64,000 nt of DNA, taken from the sequence record AP019521.1; one strand, 5' to 3'. The translations under genes were made by a program, and so were the position numbers. Shown piece after piece: positions 3,693-54,948 of this stretch (position 1 is the first letter of the stretch; every line of letters begins with the position of its first letter). Origin of the DNA: Escherichia phage KIT01. The notes beneath the pieces are model-generated. The model was not told the origin of the DNA. It saw nothing but the letters and a program-made list of their open reading frames with translations, and ran no database searches.

Positions 3693-3971
3693 TTATTTCA
3701 TATTATTGAAATAATCTTCTGCATCAAAATCGTTATCATGATAAACTTTGGTAGACGATTTGGCGTAGCCTTCAGCTGAGAACATATTAATCACAACTTT
3801 AATTGTATACCACTGTCCATCTTCATTACCCATTACTGCATAGGTTTCATACACTGGGTGTTCAGGACCGATAACTTTAATATCGTTAACAGTAGCACCA
3901 AATTCTTCAGGAACGCATTTCATAAAGAAATTAAACAATTCACCATAATTATCCATTTTACTCTCCTTCAC
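3693..3971 (-). CDS. hypothetical protein
   Basis: 92-aa ORF; aaggag RBS (plus-strand ctcctt 3963-3968); conserved promoter-leader cassette upstream. Confidence 0.45.
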   Translation of the reverse strand: MKESKMDNYGELFNFFMKCVPEEFGATVNDIKVIGPEHPVYETYAVMGNEDGQWYTIKVVINMFSAEGYAKSSTKVYHDNDFDAEDYFNNMK

Positions 3972-3991
3972 ACTGTTGTTTTGATAGGTCT

Positions 3992-4020
3992 ATAGTATCA
4001 TGTTTAAAGGAGGTGTAAAC
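3992..4020 (-). promoter_or_regulatory. sigma70 early-type promoter with conserved leader TACTATAGACCTATCAAAAC
   Basis: minus strand GTTTACA-N17-TACTAT; cassette repeated at 7280, 7848, 41716. Confidence 0.5.
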
Positions 4021-4049
4021 AACTTTGTGAAATTATTTTTAGTTTAAAC

Positions 4050-4074
4050 CCCCAAAAAGGAGACCGAAGTCTCC
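4050..4074 (-). terminator. intrinsic terminator after IPIII-like gene
   Basis: hairpin ggagac-TTCG-gtctcc followed on minus strand by UUUUUGGGGGUUU. Confidence 0.6.
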
Positions 4075-4079
4075 TTTCA

Positions 4080-4688
4080 TTATTTACGAGTCTTTTCGAA
4101 CTGTGCTGCGTCACCTGCAAGGCGGCCCGCTTGGCGAAGTTTGTTATTGATTTCTTCGCGCATAGGCTGGGTATACTTAAGGCCTTCAACCGTCAGATAG
4201 AGACGATACAGGTCTGGGGTATCCAGGTTGTTAATGTGTTGACCATTACGAAGAGCGTTGAATTCACGAACAAGGTGTTTAGTTTCAGATTCGATTTCAG
4301 AAACTAAAGAAGCCAGTTGGTTATATTTTTTAACTATAGTGCTGGTGTCAAACTTGATTTTAGATTTAGGAGCTTCTTTTACAGGTTCTGGTTTAGGCGT
4401 CGGTTTCGGTGTTGCAACTTTGGGCTGAGCCGCAGGTTTAGCAACAGGAGCTTTAGCAGGTTTAGCAGCGCCACCAGCTACTATATCTTTAAAAGCTTTG
4501 GAAGCTTTGTAATATTCTTTCTGGCTGCTAGTATCAAAACCATACATATCATAGACGTTTTTAAAGAATTCGGTGGTGGTTTTAGTCCCAGAAATTTTAT
4601 CATAAGCTGCTTGCCACATATCTTTAGTCATGCGGATGCCGGCTTCACTCAGAACGCTTTCGTTCAAAAATTCATTGTAAGTTTTCAT
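4080..4688 (-). CDS. internal protein, IPIII-like, with N-terminal capsid targeting sequence
   Basis: 202 aa (T4 IPIII about 193); N-terminus MKTYNEFLNE matches T4 CTS consensus MKTYQEFIAE; Ala/Pro/Lys-rich linker; late promoter TATAAATA upstream. Confidence 0.6.
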   Translation of the reverse strand: MKTYNEFLNESVLSEAGIRMTKDMWQAAYDKISGTKTTTEFFKNVYDMYGFDTSSQKEYYKASKAFKDIVAGGAAKPAKAPVAKPAAQPKVATPKPTPKPEPVKEAPKSKIKFDTSTIVKKYNQLASLVSEIESETKHLVREFNALRNGQHINNLDTPDLYRLYLTVEGLKYTQPMREEINNKLRQAGRLAGDAAQFEKTRK

Positions 4689-4716
4689 TGGTATTTCCTA
4701 AGTTAATTAACTTATC

Positions 4717-4724
4717 TATTTATA
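4717..4724 (-). promoter_or_regulatory. T4-type late promoter TATAAATA
   Basis: exact TATAAATA on minus strand upstream of IPIII-like gene. Confidence 0.6.
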
Positions 4725-4730
4725 CAAAAA

Positions 4731-4752
4731 GCCCAACCTTTCGGAAGGGCCG
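4731..4752 (-). terminator. terminator-like hairpin (cccaacctttcggaagggc family) with U-tract
   Basis: GC stem, followed on minus strand by CUUUUUGUA; repeated at 5353 and 50552. Confidence 0.5.
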
Positions 4753-4756
4753 TGAA

Positions 4757-5311
4757 TCAATTCTTATAGAATCGGAACGGGTTTACGTGGAAGGCTAACA
4801 TAGCCTTAGGGATTTTACGAGACAAAAGACTCTTAAGTTTCCAACCGCAGTATACTCGTAGGTAAAAGGTAATCCCACCAACCTTAAGATATGGAACCGA
4901 AGCAAAGACTCCCCAGGCGTCGTCATTCCACATCCATAGCCACCCATGATGAGCTTTATCAGGAGAACCTGATTCCACATCGGGATTACCACGATAATGG
5001 AATTCTGAGCTACAATCACGGCCGAGTTTATGGTAAGCAAAGTTATAAGCTTTATTTCGCCACAACCAGGCTACTCGTTGAAGGTATATGCCTAAAGGTA
5101 GTTTTCTTATTTTAGCCCAACGTTTAATGTGACCTTTATCACCGTCAATTGGATTATCGTATGTCATCATCCAATCAAAGCCGTACGGCAATTTACCAGT
5201 CTTTTTATTGTGGAAAGGAACTACAAAAGGTGCAAGGATAACAGCCAGAACCATAGAGATAAAATCTAGTGGGACCAACAGAACCCAACTCAAATATTTT
5301 AAAAGTTTCAT
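4757..5311 (-). CDS. hypothetical protein with N-terminal hydrophobic segment
   Basis: 184 aa; late promoter TATAAATA at 5338-5345 and same upstream cassette as the IPIII-like gene. Confidence 0.45.
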   Translation of the reverse strand: MKLLKYLSWVLLVPLDFISMVLAVILAPFVVPFHNKKTGKLPYGFDWMMTYDNPIDGDKGHIKRWAKIRKLPLGIYLQRVAWLWRNKAYNFAYHKLGRDCSSEFHYRGNPDVESGSPDKAHHGWLWMWNDDAWGVFASVPYLKVGGITFYLRVYCGWKLKSLLSRKIPKAMLAFHVNPFRFYKN

Positions 5312-5337
5312 ATTATTTCCTAAGTTAGTTTACTACA

Positions 5338-5345
5338 TATTTATA
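5338..5345 (-). promoter_or_regulatory. T4-type late promoter TATAAATA
   Basis: exact TATAAATA on minus strand upstream of gene 4757..5311. Confidence 0.6.
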
Positions 5346-5352
5346 CAAAAAA

Positions 5353-5374
5353 GGCCCAACCTTTCGGAAGGGCC
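5353..5374 (-). terminator. terminator-like hairpin at the end of the tRNA/RNA transcription unit
   Basis: ggcccaacctttcggaagggcc followed on minus strand by UUUUUUG. Confidence 0.55.
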
Positions 5375-5389
5375 TTTAACCTAGGGTAA

Positions 5390-5750
5390 CCTTGTCGGGG
5401 TTCCACCTGCTAGGCAAGTGTTTGTACGAAACGCCAGGATTCGAACCCGGTTATTAAGTAGTTGACGCTACTCAATATTTTTAAAAGGCCATATCTCGAC
5501 CATATCCGAACGTTCCGTCAAAAACGCTACTCGGCTTACGGCAAAGATATTTCCTCGAATCGATAATTAGGTGCGCCGTTTCTGCTGTGATGTAAGGGGA
5601 CGTTAACAGATCGTAAAGATTTGTTAATGCCAGTCCTTACTCAGGGAACATCAGTCCGACGACTTACCGGTAGCGACCCGGTTTCTTGTTTGTTGCGCCG
5701 GTGAATGCTGGTAATCAGTCTTCATACGACGGCTTGACTATATAATAGTC
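5390..5750 (-). ncRNA. ORF-free region downstream of the tRNAs: candidate stable small RNA(s), comparable in position to T4 species 1/2 RNAs
   Basis: about 360 nt without ORF of 60 aa or more, bounded by tRNA-Arg and a terminator hairpin; contains a tRNA T-arm-like GGTTCGAATCC motif (5434-5450) without a full cloverleaf. Confidence 0.3.
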
Positions 5751-5756
5751 TTCATT

Positions 5757-5831
5757 TGGTATCCCGCCCTGGGATCGAACCAGGACCGCAAACTTAGAAG
5801 GATCGTATGCTATCCATTACACCAGCGGGAC
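5757..5831 (-). tRNA. tRNA-Arg (anticodon UCU), CCA encoded
   Basis: manual cloverleaf: 7-bp acceptor GTCCCGC/GCGGGAT, T-arm CCTGG-TTCGATC-CCAGG, anticodon loop CTTCTAA with U33 and A37; one mismatch in anticodon stem. Confidence 0.7.
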
Positions 5832-5836
5832 GTAGT

Positions 5837-5913
5837 TGGTGACCCAGACCAGATTTGAACTGGTAACCTTTCCCTTATGAGGGGACTGCTGCTAACCATT
5901 GAGCTACAGGGCC
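5837..5913 (-). tRNA. tRNA with CAU anticodon (Ile-lysidine type or Met), CCA encoded
   Basis: manual fold: acceptor GGCCCTG/CTGGGTC (one mismatch), U8, D-arm GCTCAATGGTTAGC, anticodon loop CTCATAA, T-arm ACCAG-TTCAAAT-CTGGT. Confidence 0.6.
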
Positions 5914-5918
5914 TTAAA

Positions 5919-6185
5919 TCAAACTACAAATCCAGCAGGAGCATTATCATCTTTAGCCATGTGCTGAATTGTATGATAAGTCATTTCTTCAGGAGCAACC
6001 AGATAAGCCGCAGCGTTAACTAGTGGAATTATTTTTGGTTTAGCGAATGTGCTATCGGCAATTGCCATAAAGGGCTCGCCATCAGTCTCAACTTCGCCAA
6101 ATTGACATTCATATGAAATAGAACAACGTTTGGTAGTTGTTGTCTTGGTTTCTGGGTCGTAAAAAGCTAATTTTAATACTAACAT
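5919..6185 (-). CDS. hypothetical protein
   Basis: track ORF 5919..6191 begins at GTG; ATG at 6185 with GAGGT RBS preferred. Confidence 0.35.
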   Translation of the reverse strand: MLVLKLAFYDPETKTTTTKRCSISYECQFGEVETDGEPFMAIADSTFAKPKIIPLVNAAAYLVAPEEMTYHTIQHMAKDDNAPAGFVV

Positions 6186-6242
6186 AAACACCTCAAATAA
6201 AATTAAGTAAAGTAAGTTTGATTAATAGACTTTGTCTATTAT

Positions 6243-6268
6243 GAAAGGTTCTTTGAGGGAAGAACCTT
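6243..6268 (-). other. 10-bp perfect inverted repeat hairpin in 5-prime leader
   Basis: aaaggttctt-tgaggg-aagaaccttt; no flanking U-tract. Confidence 0.4.
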
Positions 6269-6297
6269 TGGTAATAGAGGGTATTAATGATAGAGTA

Positions 6298-6324
6298 ATA
6301 ATAACACATTACTCTTAAAGCATA
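6298..6324 (-). promoter_or_regulatory. middle-type promoter candidate (MotA-box-like) upstream of the tRNA-proximal operon
   Basis: minus strand taTGCTTTA-N12-TATTAT; shares aaagcatattact with the rnlB site. Confidence 0.35.
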
Positions 6325-6359
6325 TTACTATTTTTAGGAATAGTCTGGTCAAATTTGAT

Positions 6360-6650
6360 TCATTGTGGCCACATATTAATGTAATCAAGTTTAATAGAAG
6401 CAATCTTCAAAGGATTTTTAAAGATGTCGTATTCGATCAATCCGTTTTCAGTTGCGGTGTAGAAAGTAAAGTTAACAGAATTATAACGGCGACCATTAAC
6501 TTTTAGTTTAACGTCGCTTGAACTACGACCAATATTAACCTGTTGGACATCAAGCACAGCACCTTTGCCAAAGTTGCGAATCAGTAGCTCTGCTGCAACC
6601 TGGTCTGAATTATAGCCATTCTCTGGATTAGTAACCTTAACGTATAGCAT
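6360..6650 (-). CDS. hypothetical protein
   Basis: 96-aa ORF, start abuts stop of upstream gene. Confidence 0.4.
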   Translation of the reverse strand: MLYVKVTNPENGYNSDQVAAELLIRNFGKGAVLDVQQVNIGRSSSDVKLKVNGRRYNSVNFTFYTATENGLIEYDIFKNPLKIASIKLDYINMWPQ

Positions 6651-7058
6651 TTAACCCTCGTCTACAATAGTATGGGTATTAGCATTAACAATCTGCCACC
6701 AGTCACAGTCAAAACGATTAGAACCGTAACGAGGCTTTTTCTCATTTTCGTTAATAATATCACGTAGTTCGTCTTCAGAAAATGCTTTAGCGATTAAATC
6801 GGTATAGCCGCCACGTGGATAATAGTTATCACCTGCGAACAGAAGGAAATTTACTTTACCAGAAGGAACATATGCTTCCTTAGAGTACTTGTTTCCTGCA
6901 TGGTCTACCACTTCAATATAACGATAAGGGATATCGGTACTTTCAACCCATTGCCAAGCTGCAGCAGGGGATTCAAAAGCATCTACACCTAAACGGTTAT
7001 CTTCATCTTTAGACGGATTATTTTCATAATCCGCATATACATAATATTCAACGTTCAT
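6651..7058 (-). CDS. hypothetical protein
   Basis: 135-aa ORF in tightly packed operon. Confidence 0.45.
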   Translation of the reverse strand: MNVEYYVYADYENNPSKDEDNRLGVDAFESPAAAWQWVESTDIPYRYIEVVDHAGNKYSKEAYVPSGKVNFLLFAGDNYYPRGGYTDLIAKAFSEDELRDIINENEKKPRYGSNRFDCDWWQIVNANTHTIVDEG

Positions 7059-7243
7059 TATTCACCTTTAGAGATTTTATCCATAACGAAAGAAATTGAA
7101 CCAATTAAGAATGCCACTACTAAAGAGATTATATTCTCTGAAGTTGAAAGCATATCGAGCATGAATCCTGCAAACATACTAAAGCCAAAAGCAGTAACAG
7201 CGGCCAGTGCAGTAACATTTCTAATTAATTCACAACGTTTCAT
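7058..7243 (-). CDS. small membrane protein
   Basis: ORF 7058..7255 trimmed to ATG at 7243 behind ggagaataaa RBS; hydrophobic core VTALAAVTAFGFSMFAGF. Confidence 0.4.
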   Translation of the reverse strand: MKRCELIRNVTALAAVTAFGFSMFAGFMLDMLSTSENIISLVVAFLIGSISFVMDKISKGE

Positions 7244-7279
7244 TTTATTCTCCAATCACTCATTTGTTTTGATAGGGCT

Positions 7280-7309
7280 ATAGTACCATCACTAAAGCCC
7301 GTTGTAAAC
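7280..7309 (-). promoter_or_regulatory. sigma70 early-type promoter (cassette copy)
   Basis: GTTTACA ... TACTATAGCCCTATCAAAAC upstream of 7058..7243. Confidence 0.5.
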
Positions 7310-7311
7310 AA

Positions 7312-7584
7312 TTATTTTAAATAAATTGCATATTTTTTATAACCAGCCGTCTCGTGACGCAGTCCTTTTTCATTAGCAAAACGTTCAATATTGTTAATTT
7401 GATTCTGGTCGAGTTCTGAAGTATCAAAAACAAAAAAGTTTCGCTTATTGCCTAAAGTTACGTGATTAGTCAAATCGATGTTATAGAGATGATTTATATC
7501 ATCAATCATAGTCTTAACAGATTTGTTAATTTTTACTTCTTCATTAAGAAGAGATTCAGCGATAAATTCTTGGTATGATTTCAT
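7312..7584 (-). CDS. internal-protein-like protein with capsid targeting sequence
   Basis: 90 aa, N-terminus MKSYQEFIAE. Confidence 0.55.
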   Translation of the reverse strand: MKSYQEFIAESLLNEEVKINKSVKTMIDDINHLYNIDLTNHVTLGNKRNFFVFDTSELDQNQINNIERFANEKGLRHETAGYKKYAIYLK

Positions 7585-7585
7585 T

Positions 7586-7810
7586 TTATTCAGCGCCAGC
7601 GGCTTTCAAAAGTTTTTTAAGGTTGGCTATGCCGCCAGCAGAAAACGTGACCTTGCCACCTTTTTCATTGATAGAGCCAGTCAATTTAGCAAGCTTATCA
7701 CTAGGGACTTTTTTAAAATCAGCCAGTGTGCCATCAAAGGTTTTTGTAACAATTGGCAGTTCATCTTCATGTCTTTTAGCTTCGGTGATAAATTCTTGAT
7801 AAGTTTTCAT
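7586..7810 (-). CDS. internal-protein-like protein with capsid targeting sequence (IPI-position)
   Basis: ORF 7586..7822 trimmed to ATG at 7810 behind ggagaataaa; N-terminus MKTYQEFITE; lies next to 57B as ipI is recalled to in T4. Confidence 0.55.
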   Translation of the reverse strand: MKTYQEFITEAKRHEDELPIVTKTFDGTLADFKKVPSDKLAKLTGSINEKGGKVTFSAGGIANLKKLLKAAGAE

Positions 7811-7847
7811 TTTATTCTCCATTTCACTCTGTTGTTTTGATAGGTCT

Positions 7848-7876
7848 ATAGTATCATGCCTATAGACCTTGTAAAC
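7848..7876 (-). promoter_or_regulatory. sigma70 early-type promoter (cassette copy)
   Basis: GTTTACA ... TACTATAGACCTATCAAAAC upstream of IP-like gene 7586..7810. Confidence 0.5.
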
Positions 7877-7888
7877 ACCTTTTTTAAA

Positions 7889-8581
<693 letters not shown>

Positions 8582-37870: not shown

Positions 37871-38298
37871 TGTTCCTTATCCCTGATGATTACGAATTAA
37901 CTCTAGAAAGCGTAGAGGCTAAAATTCCAGAAGCACAGGGACGTTTTGCTGCTCTTTCTGAAGCGCTCGAGAAAAGCGATATAAATAATCTTGTAGAGAA
38001 CATGATTGCTGAAGGCGATATCGAATGTGCTATCGCTCTTGGTTCTTTAAATGAATCAATGGCTCTTAACGAATTTATCGTTAAACACGTTTCCTCTAAA
38101 GGTGTGCTTACTCGTACTAAAGATATTAAAACCCGTCAACGTAACGCATTCCAAACGACAGGTTTATCTAAAGCAAAACGCCGTCAGATTGCTCGCAAAG
38201 CATCTAAAACCAAACGTGCTAATCCATCTACTCAAGTGCGTGCTGAACGTAAGCGTAAGAAAGCCCGTTCTAAACGTAAAGCTTTTGGACTTAACTAA
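37870..38298 (+). CDS. 68: gp68 prohead core protein
   Basis: 142 aa (T4 141); basic C-terminus. Confidence 0.8.
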
Positions 38299-38933
38299 TG
38301 AAACCTGAATTGCTCATCGAACATTGGGGACAACCAGGTGAAATTATCGATGGGGTTCCTATGTTGGAATCTCATGATGGAAAAAATTCTGGGCTTGCTC
38401 CCGGCCTTTATATAGAAGGCATTTTCATGCAAGCAGAGGTAGTTAACCGTAATAAACGCCTTTACCCAAAACCTATTTTGGAAAAAGCCGTTGCCGATTA
38501 TATGGCTGAACAGGTTGCTACTAAACAAGCTTTAGGAGAATTAAACCACCCACCTCGTGCTAACGTCGACCCTATGCAAGCTGCTATCATTATTGAAGAT
38601 ATGTGGTGGAAAGGTAATGATGTTTATGGACGTGCACGTATCATCGAAGGTGACCATGGCCCGGGTGATAAACTAGCCGCAAATATCCGAGCTGGCTGGG
38701 TTCCTGGTGTTAGTTCTCGCGGTCTTGGTTCTTTAACTGAAACCAATAAAGGATATAAGCGTGTAAACGAAGGTTATAAATTAACCGTCGGTGTTGATGC
38801 AGTATGGGGACCATCTGCTCCTGATGCTTATGTAACTCCAAAGCAAATTACAGAATCACAAACGGTAGAAACCGATACCAGTGCCGATGACGCCTTTATG
38901 GCTCTCGCAGAGGCCATGAAAAAAGCGTTATAA
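38298..38933 (+). CDS. 21: gp21 prohead core protease
   Basis: 211 aa (T4 212); position. Confidence 0.9.
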   Translation: MKPELLIEHWGQPGEIIDGVPMLESHDGKNSGLAPGLYIEGIFMQAEVVNRNKRLYPKPILEKAVADYMAEQVATKQALGELNHPPRANVDPMQAAIIIEDMWWKGNDVYGRARIIEGDHGPGDKLAANIRAGWVPGVSSRGLGSLTETNKGYKRVNEGYKLTVGVDAVWGPSAPDAYVTPKQITESQTVETDTSADDAFMALAEAMKKAL

Positions 38934-38963: not shown

Positions 38964-39779
38964 ATGCTTAAAGAACAACTGATCGCCGAAGCACAGAATA
39001 TTGATGCTTCCGTTGCTCTTGACAGTATTTTCGAATCAGTTAATATTTCTCCGGAAGCAAAAGAAACTTTCGGCACTGTATTCGAAGCTACCGTCAAGCA
39101 ACACGCCGTGAAACTGGCTGAATCTCACATCGCTAAAATCGCTGAAAAAGCGGAAGAAGAAGTAGAGAAAAATAAAGAAGAAGCTGAAGAAAAAGCCGAT
39201 AAGAAAATCCAAGAAGCTGCCGGTCGTTTCCTTGACCACGTTGCTAAAGAATGGATGGCTGAAAACCAGCTGGCTGTTGATAAAGGTATTAAAGCCGAAC
39301 TGTTCGAATCCATGTTGATGGGTATGAAAGAACTGTTTGTTGAACACAATGTGGTTGTTCCAGAAGAAGCAGTAGATGTTGTTGCTGAAATGGAAGAAGA
39401 GCTCCAAGAGCAGAAAGATGAAACCGCTCGTCTGTTCGAAGAAGTTGGTATGCGCGATGCGTATATTAATTACGTGCAGCGTGAAGTTGCTGTTACGGAA
39501 GCAACTAAAGACCTGACTGAATCTCAAAAAGAAAAAGTTAGTTCTCTGGTAGAAGGCATGGATTATTCCGATGCATTCGGTAAAAAAATTGGCGCTATTG
39601 TTGAAATGGTTAAAGGTCAATCTGACGTTGAAAACCCAATCACCGAAGCCGCTATAAATAAAAATGTAGACGATGCTGCGGCACTGAATTACATTTCAGA
39701 AGCAGTTGAAGAAAAAGGCGCTAAGCCTACCCTGTCCTTCGCGGACCTGTCTGCAATCGCAGCATCACGAATTTCTTAA
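38964..39779 (+). CDS. 22: gp22 prohead core scaffold
   Basis: 271 aa (T4 269); acidic coiled-coil. Confidence 0.9.
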   Translation: MLKEQLIAEAQNIDASVALDSIFESVNISPEAKETFGTVFEATVKQHAVKLAESHIAKIAEKAEEEVEKNKEEAEEKADKKIQEAAGRFLDHVAKEWMAENQLAVDKGIKAELFESMLMGMKELFVEHNVVVPEEAVDVVAEMEEELQEQKDETARLFEEVGMRDAYINYVQREVAVTEATKDLTESQKEKVSSLVEGMDYSDAFGKKIGAIVEMVKGQSDVENPITEAAINKNVDDAAALNYISEAVEEKGAKPTLSFADLSAIAASRIS

Positions 39780-53782: not shown

Positions 53783-54948
53783 GTTCAAAAACTATGCAAC
53801 GTGAAGGCTTTCCTAATATTAGTATACGCCTTTACGAAGATTATGACGCCTGGTTAGAGCATCGTTTTGTTGAACTAGGCGCGACATTTACTACTCTAAC
53901 AATGCGAGATGGACTTTACGGTAGTAATGAAGGATTGCTCCAGTTTTATGATGCAAAGAACCTTCATACTAAAATGGACGGCGAACAGATTATCCAAATT
54001 TCTGTTAAAAACGCTAACTCTGAGCGTACCCAGTCAAGAATTTATGGAAGCAAACACTTTGCTGTAGGAGTGGATTCGAAGGGCGACAATATCATAACAA
54101 TACAACTCGCCCCAATCCACTTTTTAGAGAATCTTAAATTTAGTCGTATGTTCTTCCCTAGTGTTCAAGAAACATTAACTGAAATGATTGGTGTTATTTA
54201 TCAAGACCGTCCACTTCTTGCTCCTCCTTTGAACGGGATAAACGTTTACGTTCCTAATGTTCCTTGGTGTGATTCAATGGACCGATATATGGAATTTGTA
54301 CGTGAAGTAGGTATGGCTGTTGAATCTGATAAATTTGTATTTGTCTGGGAAGATATAGATGGTATTTCTATCATGGACTACGAATTTATGGTTAATCAAG
54401 AACCAATTAATTTTGTGGTAGGTGAGCCTCGTTTAATAGGCCAATACGTCCAAGATATGGACACACCTATCGCATTTGATTTTGAATGGTTAACTAAAGC
54501 CAACCAGCATTCCAGAAAGCCATATGAAAACGCTACTGTATACGCCCACTCTTTCTTAGACAAAAACGCCACACGAATTACTTTTGGCGATGGGCAAAAC
54601 AGTATATTGGTTTCTCGCTCTGGTGGATATTCCGATTATACCTACCGAAACGGATTTGAAGAAGCTGATAGATTAGTTACTATGGCCCAGTATGATGGAT
54701 ACGCCCATTGTAAGGTATACGGTAACTTTGAACTAACTCCAGGCGATAAGATTAATTTCTATGACCCTAAAAACCAATTCCAATACGATTTTTATGTAGA
54801 CGAAGTTATTCATGAAGTGAGTAACAATACATCAATTACAAACCTTTATATGTTTACTAATGGTAAGCCTATTAAGATTGAAGAACCACCGAAGGTTAAA
54901 AATGAACTTAAAACTGATACTCCCGATCAAGAAAATAACGCTGGGTGA
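53779..54948 (+). CDS. 27: gp27 baseplate hub subunit
   Basis: 389 aa (T4 391). Confidence 0.9.

Follow-up and report, generated by a model that had tools for sequence, protein, structure and literature searches.

The internal proteins of phage T4 carry an N-terminal capsid targeting sequence (CTS), and in that of IPIII, residues 4 and 7 are needed for targeting and residues 8 and 10 for processing (PMC9026906). According to the T4 record, IPII and IPIII both begin with MKTYQEFIAE. IPI, which is small, packaged, processed and injected, begins with MKTFKEFTST and has a longer leader of 19 residues ending in ITE before an alanine (MKTFKEFTSTTTPVSTITE, followed by A). Each of Ip1, Ip2 and Ip3 inhibits a GmrSD enzyme of its own (that of CT596, ECOR21 and ECOR17, respectively) with no cross-protection, and in the same study GmrSD-type enzymes were proposed to be the targets of all of the accessory proteins of the Ip loci (PMC12373910). 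Bas37_0260 of phage KarlGJung, a CTS protein of 77 amino acids (aa) encoded in the ipI slot, inhibits McrBC (bioRxiv 10.1101/2025.11.20.689424). Here we analyzed a stretch of 64,000 nucleotides (nt) of Escherichia phage KIT01 (AP019521.1; hereafter the window), in which three genes encode proteins of 202, 90 and 74 aa with N-termini of the CTS form. A first-pass annotation of the window had linked these genes to the inhibition of a type IV restriction system by IPI, and the precedent has become wider with the findings on Ip1, Ip2, Ip3 and Bas37_0260.

The three open reading frames (ORFs) begin with MKTYNEFLNE (positions 4080-4688, 202 aa), MKSYQEFIAE (7312-7584, 90 aa) and MKTYQEFITE (7586-7810, 74 aa), as the first-pass annotation had reported without giving the strand, which is the minus strand for all three. 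Its statement that the T4 internal proteins share a CTS of this form is right for IPII and IPIII, of which 7 to 9 of the 10 residues recur in the three proteins, and does not extend to IPI with its 19-residue leader. Y4, F7, L/I8 and E10 are present in all of the three proteins. When the six frames of the window were scanned with the strict motif MK[ST]Y.[ED]F[ILVM].E and with looser ones, these three ORFs were the only ones matching at their starts. As the amino-acid frequencies of the window itself predict just 3.7e-6 strict matches in 120 ORFs, a chance resemblance is excluded. Loose-motif matches at 54277 and 43336 were discarded because they lie deep within longer ORFs, the former inside a gp27-like baseplate hub gene. 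For the 74-aa protein, a Shine-Dalgarno sequence (GGAG) located 6 nt upstream of the ATG at 7810, together with the homologues in RB15 (Ip8) and AnYang that start at MK[TA]YQ, indicates that this ATG is the real start, and the more upstream ATG at 7822 (the mechanical ORF 7586-7822) was rejected on the same grounds. The ten initial codons that specify the CTS of the 202-aa protein (4659..4688, minus strand) and their counterparts at 7555-7584 and 7781-7810 constitute a family of 31-nt direct repeats that are 71-81% identical to each other.

The 74-aa protein (7586..7810; MKTYQEFITE/AKRHE..., slashes marking the predicted cuts) and the 90-aa protein (7312..7584; MKSYQEFIAE/SLLNE/EVKINK...) were assigned by homology to Ip8 and Ip9 of phage RB15, with 63 of 74 residues (85%) and 70 of 90 residues (78%) being identical over the full length, CTS included. 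Ip8 matched phrog_8765 (E 8e-27) and Ip9 matched phrog_7673, 'internal head protein' (E 8e-56); the two PHROG families are annotated as internal virion/head proteins, and the RefSeq records of sister phages likewise annotate Ip8 and Ip9 as internal proteins. The genes of RB15 have the same lengths (74 and 90 aa) and lie in the same slot between 57B and trna.4. On the other hand, RB15 is a member of Tequatrovirus with the order 57B-Ip5-Ip9-Ip7-Ip8, whereas the phage studied here belongs to Dhakavirus and has the order 57B-Ip8-Ip9, lacking Ip5 and Ip7. The start of Ip9 is found 1 nt past the stop of Ip8. By homology, both small genes represent known families, Ip8 and Ip9, and they lie in the ipI slot, which is classical and hypervariable. 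The two small proteins, which the first-pass annotation had regarded as candidate effectors, had thus already been named and annotated; the unrecognized protein is that of 202 aa. The Ip8 and Ip9 families were reportedly named in 1994. After the loss of 10 residues, Ip8 would comprise 64 aa with a computed isoelectric point (pI) of 9.6, while mature Ip9 would be near neutral (pI 6.8).

The first-pass annotation had suggested homology and structure prediction of the mature parts. The comparison recovered the RB15 families for Ip8 and Ip9, but matched neither a characterized inhibitor of type IV restriction nor, in the fold searches made, the fold of one. Global alignments of the mature parts with T4 IPI, IPII and IPIII gave 10-21% identity, which is the background level, and Pfam, NCBIfam and PDB sequence searches with all three proteins yielded nothing usable. 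Although IPI occupies the slot held here by Ip8 and Ip9, its mature part bears no sequence similarity to the proteins of the window, and the mature parts of IPII and IPIII, encoded between denV and e in T4, are equally unrelated. Bas37_0260 shares the slot, the CTS (MKTYQEFIAE) and the size class with Ip8 and Ip9 and was considered as a homologue, but its mature sequence, compared by inspection only, did not evidently resemble any of the three proteins of the window. Thus, its McrBC target is not transferable to them. No target was reported for Ip8 or Ip9 in the literature searched.

The AlphaFold2 (AF2) model of Ip9 has a predicted local distance difference test (pLDDT) score of 87 and an alpha-beta-beta-alpha-beta-beta fold, with which a BFVD fold search retrieved nothing informative. 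In a tblastn search and a full HMMER scan, residues ~17-90 of Ip9 were found to recur outside T4-type phages. Kagunavirus JSSK01 possesses a 72-aa gene that is 51% identical to mature Ip9 and lacks the CTS (positions 2507-2725 of the retrieved stretch); this gene is the first in a series of small genes that runs rightward, in divergent orientation to helicase/primase genes and a gene for a helix-turn-helix domain. A second CTS-less Ip9-like ORF, unannotated in the record, was found in Seuratvirus ECP2304 (about 2501-2782 of the retrieved stretch). The same domain is part of proteins of 683 and 861 aa in one phage of Ackermannviridae (ChubbyThor) and in one unlabelled library representative, respectively; in the 683-aa gp130 of ChubbyThor (692-2743 of the retrieved stretch), it is the C-terminal domain. 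Altogether, the full HMMER search with mature Ip9 detected only 9 representatives, all of which were phage-like, and a word-based search with Ip9 found only close or truncated relatives. The occurrence of the domain without a CTS in other phages implies that it functions on its own and that the tag was added to it. Separately, a library protein of 77 aa (P0037) combines an Ip7-like N-terminal part with an Ip9-like C-terminal part, being a natural chimera of two internal-protein families.

The 202-aa protein (4080..4688, minus strand; MKTYNEFLNE/SVLSE/AG...) matched phrog_2280, 'unknown function', and is termed 'hypothetical' in all of the annotated records among the 40 listed out of 138 phage matches, as well as in each named protein cluster; the 100% identical entry of KIT01 bears the same label. 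Its homologues, sharing 31-97% identity, were found in Dhaka-, Mosig-, Karam-, Kanagawa- and Marfavirus and in other T4-like phages, and the gene keeps its slot downstream of the tRNA cluster in all five relatives of which the locus was inspected. The N-termini of the homologues (MYTFNEFLAE, MLNFNEFITE, MLNFKEFITE, MLQYNEFLKE, MLKFKDILTE and MLKFKEFISE) can be summarized as M-x-x-[YF]-x-[EDQ]-[FI]-[LI]-x-E, in which Y or F invariably fills position 4, F position 7 (with I in one case), L or I position 8, and E position 10. This motif is retained in the homologues of 31-47% overall identity, so that the CTS is kept while the mature part diverges, and the same leader is found on unrelated mature parts in Dhakavirus genomes. 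A second site, [LI]-[ST]-E-[AS], is conserved five to seven residues past the CTS (E15-A16 in the 202-aa protein); in the EcS1 homologue, a deletion shifts I-S-E/A exactly into the register of positions 8-10.

The AF2 model divides the 202-aa protein into a helical N-domain (residues 22-71) and a three-helix C-domain (116-200), which are joined by a disordered linker rich in Pro/Ala/Lys (about 73-106). The homologue of Kanagawavirus IME523 retains the N-domain and the linker and has a different C-domain. The mature protein would be of ~21.5 kDa with a pI of 9.6 and 33 Lys+Arg. The precursor is close in size to that of IPIII (193 aa), but homology to IPIII was rejected, as BLASTP against T4 IPIII aligned the leader region only. 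A word-based search with the N-domain found only close or truncated relatives. Considering the leader and its conservation among the homologues, we regard the 202-aa protein as a likely additional internal protein, previously unrecognized, that is encoded at a third site.

The window encodes the gp21 prohead core serine protease (38298..38933, plus strand; Pfam Peptidase_S77, E 6e-103), the gp22 scaffolding core protein (38964..39779, plus strand; Pfam T4_CASP, E 1e-89) and gp67, and thus the machinery that recognizes and removes a CTS is present. The motif and its conservation, the homologies, the synteny, the promoters, the variable presence of the genes among relatives, and the occurrence of the protease and scaffold genes lead us to infer, with a probability of roughly 0.7, that all three are T4-type internal proteins, which would be packaged, trimmed by gp21 and injected, and which would probably block type IV restriction or another first-line defense. 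In this scheme, modeled on T4 assembly (PMC9026906, PMC3012670), the CTS of about 10 residues would bring each protein into the scaffolding core as the prohead assembles, the gp22 scaffold being the expected partner. The trans-acting gp21 would then cut after the Glu of [LI]-x-E to free the mature protein inside the head, with a possible second cut five residues on in the 202-aa protein and Ip9. The mature protein would leave the head with the DNA at infection and act before any phage gene is expressed, each binding and blocking one variant of a type IV nuclease of the GmrSD/McrBC kind or another first-line defense. Ip8 and Ip9 are very likely packaged and processed, and the 202-aa protein is probably treated in the same way.

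In a related phage, CTS-type processing of a very small protein has been observed directly. Mass spectrometry of virions of Jiaodavirus ValerieMcCarty03 detected CTS proteins, including a non-tryptic peptide that begins directly after L-N-E (PMC13119998 supplement). The protein concerned is the 55-aa 'putative capsid protein' WKM80554.1 (MKTFKEFVKLNE/EMVAGD...), which was found in virions (PMC13119998).

The region containing the three genes is 91-97% identical to those of JS98-like T4-type coliphages of the genus Dhakavirus. The gene order follows that of T4, namely e.6, e.8, (202-aa gene), (DUF7338 gene), tRNA-Arg, tRNA-Met, trna.2, trna.3, trna.4, (90-aa gene), (74-aa gene), 57B, 57A, 1, 3 and 2, indicating that Ip8 and Ip9 occupy the position of T4 ipI between 57B and trna.4. 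The 202-aa gene is found elsewhere, in the slot from e.8 to the tRNA genes, where T4 passes from e.8 straight to rnaC. The 2.6 kb separating it from the Ip8/Ip9 pair contains the DUF7338 gene, rnaC/rnaD-like RNA genes, two tRNA genes and trna.2/.3/.4. The first-pass annotation treated 4080-7822 as a single internal-protein locus; the internal-protein reading passed every computational test, but the genes are located at two sites.

The hypervariability of Ip loci, as anticipated in the first-pass annotation, was evident from the comparison among sister phages, as six Dhakavirus genomes were found to carry six different sets of CTS genes. The 57B slot holds Ip8 and Ip9 in the window and AnYang; a 69-aa CTS ORF, Ip8 and Ip9 in IME08, two of them being unannotated; a 69-aa CTS ORF, Ip8, Ip9 and Ip7 in WG01; Ip9 and Ip7 in MX01; and one unannotated 97-aa CTS ORF in JS98. 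The 202-aa gene is missing in MX01, and WG01 possesses instead a 154-aa CTS paralogue of the same architecture behind the same late cassette (25% identity, E 1e-5; see below for the cassette). T4 has no annotated gene in the interval between e.8 and rnaC. The 202-aa gene is accessory. AnYang retains homologues of IPII and IPIII plus two more CTS ORFs beside denV and e, so that the 202-aa gene is an addition to, and not a replacement of, the known internal proteins. Altogether, the CTS proteins of Dhakaviruses seem to number seven or more, distributed among three slots. Among the ORFs starting with a CTS, those at 4667-4876 and 4364-4588 in IME08 and 5206-5499 in JS98 were unannotated, and those at 1277-1741 and 4685-4894 in WG01 and 2005-2403 and 116-475 in AnYang were 'hypothetical' (coordinates of the retrieved stretches).

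The promoters of the two sites differ in type. Ip8 and Ip9 would be transcribed, like the ip genes of T4, from an early-type promoter in a cassette directly upstream (7824..7891, minus strand), which is composed of the -35 element GTTTACA, a spacing of 16 nt and the extended -10 element TG-n-TACTAT (7848-7875), the -10 element being surrounded by an inverted repeat. GTTTAC-type promoters are also found upstream of ipI, ipII and ipIII in T4. The early cassette is present in three copies on the minus strand (3968-4035, 7256-7323 and 7824-7891), which precede e.8, trna.4 and Ip8, respectively, are 68-77% identical, and share the inverted repeat spanning the -10 element and a conserved 5' leader (...TATAGACCTATCAAAACAAC...). 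The 202-aa gene is preceded by a late-expression cassette (4692..4756, minus strand) that comprises a GC hairpin with a T-run (about 4726-4751), a T4-type late promoter, TATAAATA, at 4717-4724, 29 nt before the ATG, and a leader with the Shine-Dalgarno sequence AGGAAA. A second hairpin with a T-run was read directly downstream of the gene (4056..4077, minus strand), and this predicted terminator insulates the gene from the next early promoter. The 202-aa gene is thus framed as a self-contained late unit of terminator, late promoter, gene and terminator. The late promoter sits 30-40 nt upstream of the homologues; TATAAATA is unaltered in JS98, JS09 and PG7, and a variant deviating from it by one base is present in Marfa, Kosakonia phage 305 and IME523.

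A second copy of the late cassette, 81-90% identical to the first, occupies 5314-5379 in front of the DUF7338 gene (4757-5311, minus strand). The DUF7338 gene, which encodes a 184-aa protein with a hydrophobic N-terminus and is absent in IME08, is thereby equipped with its own hairpin, TATAAATA and leader. All of the copies of the early and late cassettes flank variable genes. Similarly, the promoter(early) stem-loop (PeSL) cassettes of RB49 and phi1 are repeated modules of a promoter and a stem-loop beside variable genes, and the early cassette here resembles a PeSL (PMC2839356). The PeSLs described for RB49 and phi1 contain early promoters of the sigma-70 type only (PMC2839356), whereas the cassettes at the 202-aa and DUF7338 genes carry the late TATAAATA. 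By analogy, the pattern in the window matches the PeSL-mediated shuffling of RB49 and phi1, here extended to a late-promoter cassette, and it is plausible that the repeated cassettes serve as recombination sites for the gain and loss of ip genes. The late-promoter cassettes look like an apparently mobile system that is the late counterpart of PeSLs.

Several observations weigh against the three proteins forming one class of packaged and injected inhibitors, and most of them concern the 202-aa protein. Its gene is driven by a late promoter, while the T4 ip genes and Ip8/Ip9 in the window have early-type promoters, and it lies outside both of the described Ip loci (57B-trna.4 and denV-e). Location in an Ip locus is, however, a habit of the family and not a mechanistic requirement. 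The Marfa homologue has Ile instead of Phe at position 7 of the CTS. Neither virion proteomes nor N-terminal sequences nor genetic data on any of the three proteins, or on close homologues of them, were found in the literature searched; in particular, the virion proteomics literature on Dhakavirus, Mosigvirus, fHe-Yen9-01 and Kosakonia phage 305 provided no data set covering these proteins. Finally, the Pro/Ala/Lys-rich linker and the helical domains in the model are as compatible with a structural or DNA-associated role as with that of an inhibitor.

The last point leads to the explanation that survives best besides the one we prefer. The 202-aa protein may be packaged via its CTS but play a physical role as a basic, histone-like protein, binding DNA through the Lys/Pro/Ala-rich segment and aiding the condensation, charge neutralization, ejection or protection of the entering DNA. 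The basic nature of the mature part (pI 9.6, 33 Lys+Arg), the disordered AKP-rich linker of ~35 residues, of which the composition but not the sequence is conserved across homologues, and the late expression along with the head proteins agree with such a role, and the N-domain retained in IME523, where the C-domain is replaced, fits a carrier or DNA-binding module. Nevertheless, the gene is dispensable and patchy, as exemplified by MX01 (absent), WG01 (diverged paralogue) and T4 (no annotated gene between e.8 and rnaC), and these phages already have IPII/IPIII homologues. Moreover, IPII and IPIII were formerly given a role of this kind and are now known as specific GmrSD inhibitors (PMC12373910). 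We thus consider a purely physical role rather unlikely.

A second explanation concerns Ip9 and perhaps Ip8, which could act mainly as newly made early proteins in the cytoplasm, packaging being secondary, or could have a target other than a restriction enzyme, for example, another defense system or a host process. The early-type promoter lies directly upstream, the CTS-less homologues of Ip9 in Kagunavirus and Seuratvirus must act from the cytoplasm, and CTS-less IPIII works when expressed in the cell (PMC9391042). However, ipI, ipII and ipIII of T4 are also under early-type promoters and their products are packaged nonetheless (PMC9026906), and the intact CTS in all of the T4-type copies argues that packaging has been selected. 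This explanation, to which we assign a low probability, is largely compatible with the internal-protein reading and differs from it in emphasis and target only. Finally, it is highly improbable that recombination with an ip leader left the 202-aa protein with a mere relic, devoid of function, as its N-terminus and that the protein is cytoplasmic, late and never packaged: the CTS-coding DNA is a short repeat common to ip genes, the region is full of recombination-prone regulatory cassettes and the literature searched provided no direct virion evidence, but a relic leader would decay, whereas the critical residues are kept down to ~31-47% identity in several genera while their neighbors change, the second protease-type site is conserved too, and the EcS1 deletion places I-S-E/A exactly in the 8-10 register, so that this idea is strongly disfavored.

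Returning to the internal-protein reading, a type IV restriction enzyme is the most likely target, as all four of the characterized T-even internal proteins block such enzymes; by this analogy, the odds that each of the three proteins has such a target are somewhat below even. Dhakaviruses are predicted to carry DNA with arabinosylated 5-hydroxycytosine (PMC13326640), and the GmrSD-family enzyme BrxU cleaves DNA of a Mosigvirus with the same modification (PMC13390438). Type IV enzymes are therefore a plausible threat to the phage studied here.

For the 202-aa family, we tentatively suggest, as a speculation more likely wrong than right, a class of injected proteins from a third internal-protein locus that is modular and moves as late-promoter cassettes. 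Members of such a class may be built from a CTS, a helical 'carrier' N-domain, a flexible Pro/Ala/Lys linker and an exchangeable C-terminal effector domain, the last being based on the different C-domain in IME523 and the diverged paralogue in WG01. Arabinosylated 5-hydroxycytosine is predicted or shown in the DNA of the Dhaka-, Mosig-, Marfa- and Kanagawa-type genera (PMC13326640, PMC13390438). The 202-aa family is found in these four genera, and also in Karamvirus, which is not on the arabinosylation list. Combined with the absence of an annotated T4 gene in the slot, this distribution implies that the target could be a defense recognizing arabinosylated 5-hydroxycytosine.

Other features of the region were noted. 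The gene directly upstream of the Ip8-Ip9 pair, 57B (7889-8344, minus strand), is called 'RNA ligase' in the RefSeq records of relatives and matched Pfam Acb1, a nuclease against the cyclic oligonucleotide-based antiphage signaling system (CBASS), with an E-value of 8e-59; thus, the ipI slot adjoins a known counter-defense gene. The ORF-free stretch at 5343-5686 (minus strand) is 91% identical to rnaC and rnaD of T4, which encode the stable 'species 1 and 2' RNAs, and its conservation exceeds that of the flanking protein genes; no family was matched in an Rfam scan of this stretch based on E-values. At 5757-5913 (minus strand), only tRNA-Arg(TCT) and tRNA-Met(CAT) were found, and the tRNA-Asn that lies between them in JS98 and IME08 is missing.

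Among the molecules of a phage, internal proteins are the first that host immunity encounters. As the four characterized ones are highly specific inhibitors of type IV enzymes, each uncharacterized CTS protein is a probe for an unknown or unpaired defense variant. CTS proteins also help set the host range of therapeutic T4-like phages. The genes are under-annotated in public records, as seen in the phrog_2280 family, the unannotated ORFs of JS98 and IME08, and the 'hypothetical' ORFs of WG01 and AnYang, and the CTS motif finds them beyond the two textbook loci. The effector domain of Ip9 circulates among unrelated coliphages in both tagged and untagged forms. These findings leave the understanding of how such systems work unchanged; they extend the catalogue of internal proteins and supply concrete candidates that can be tested.

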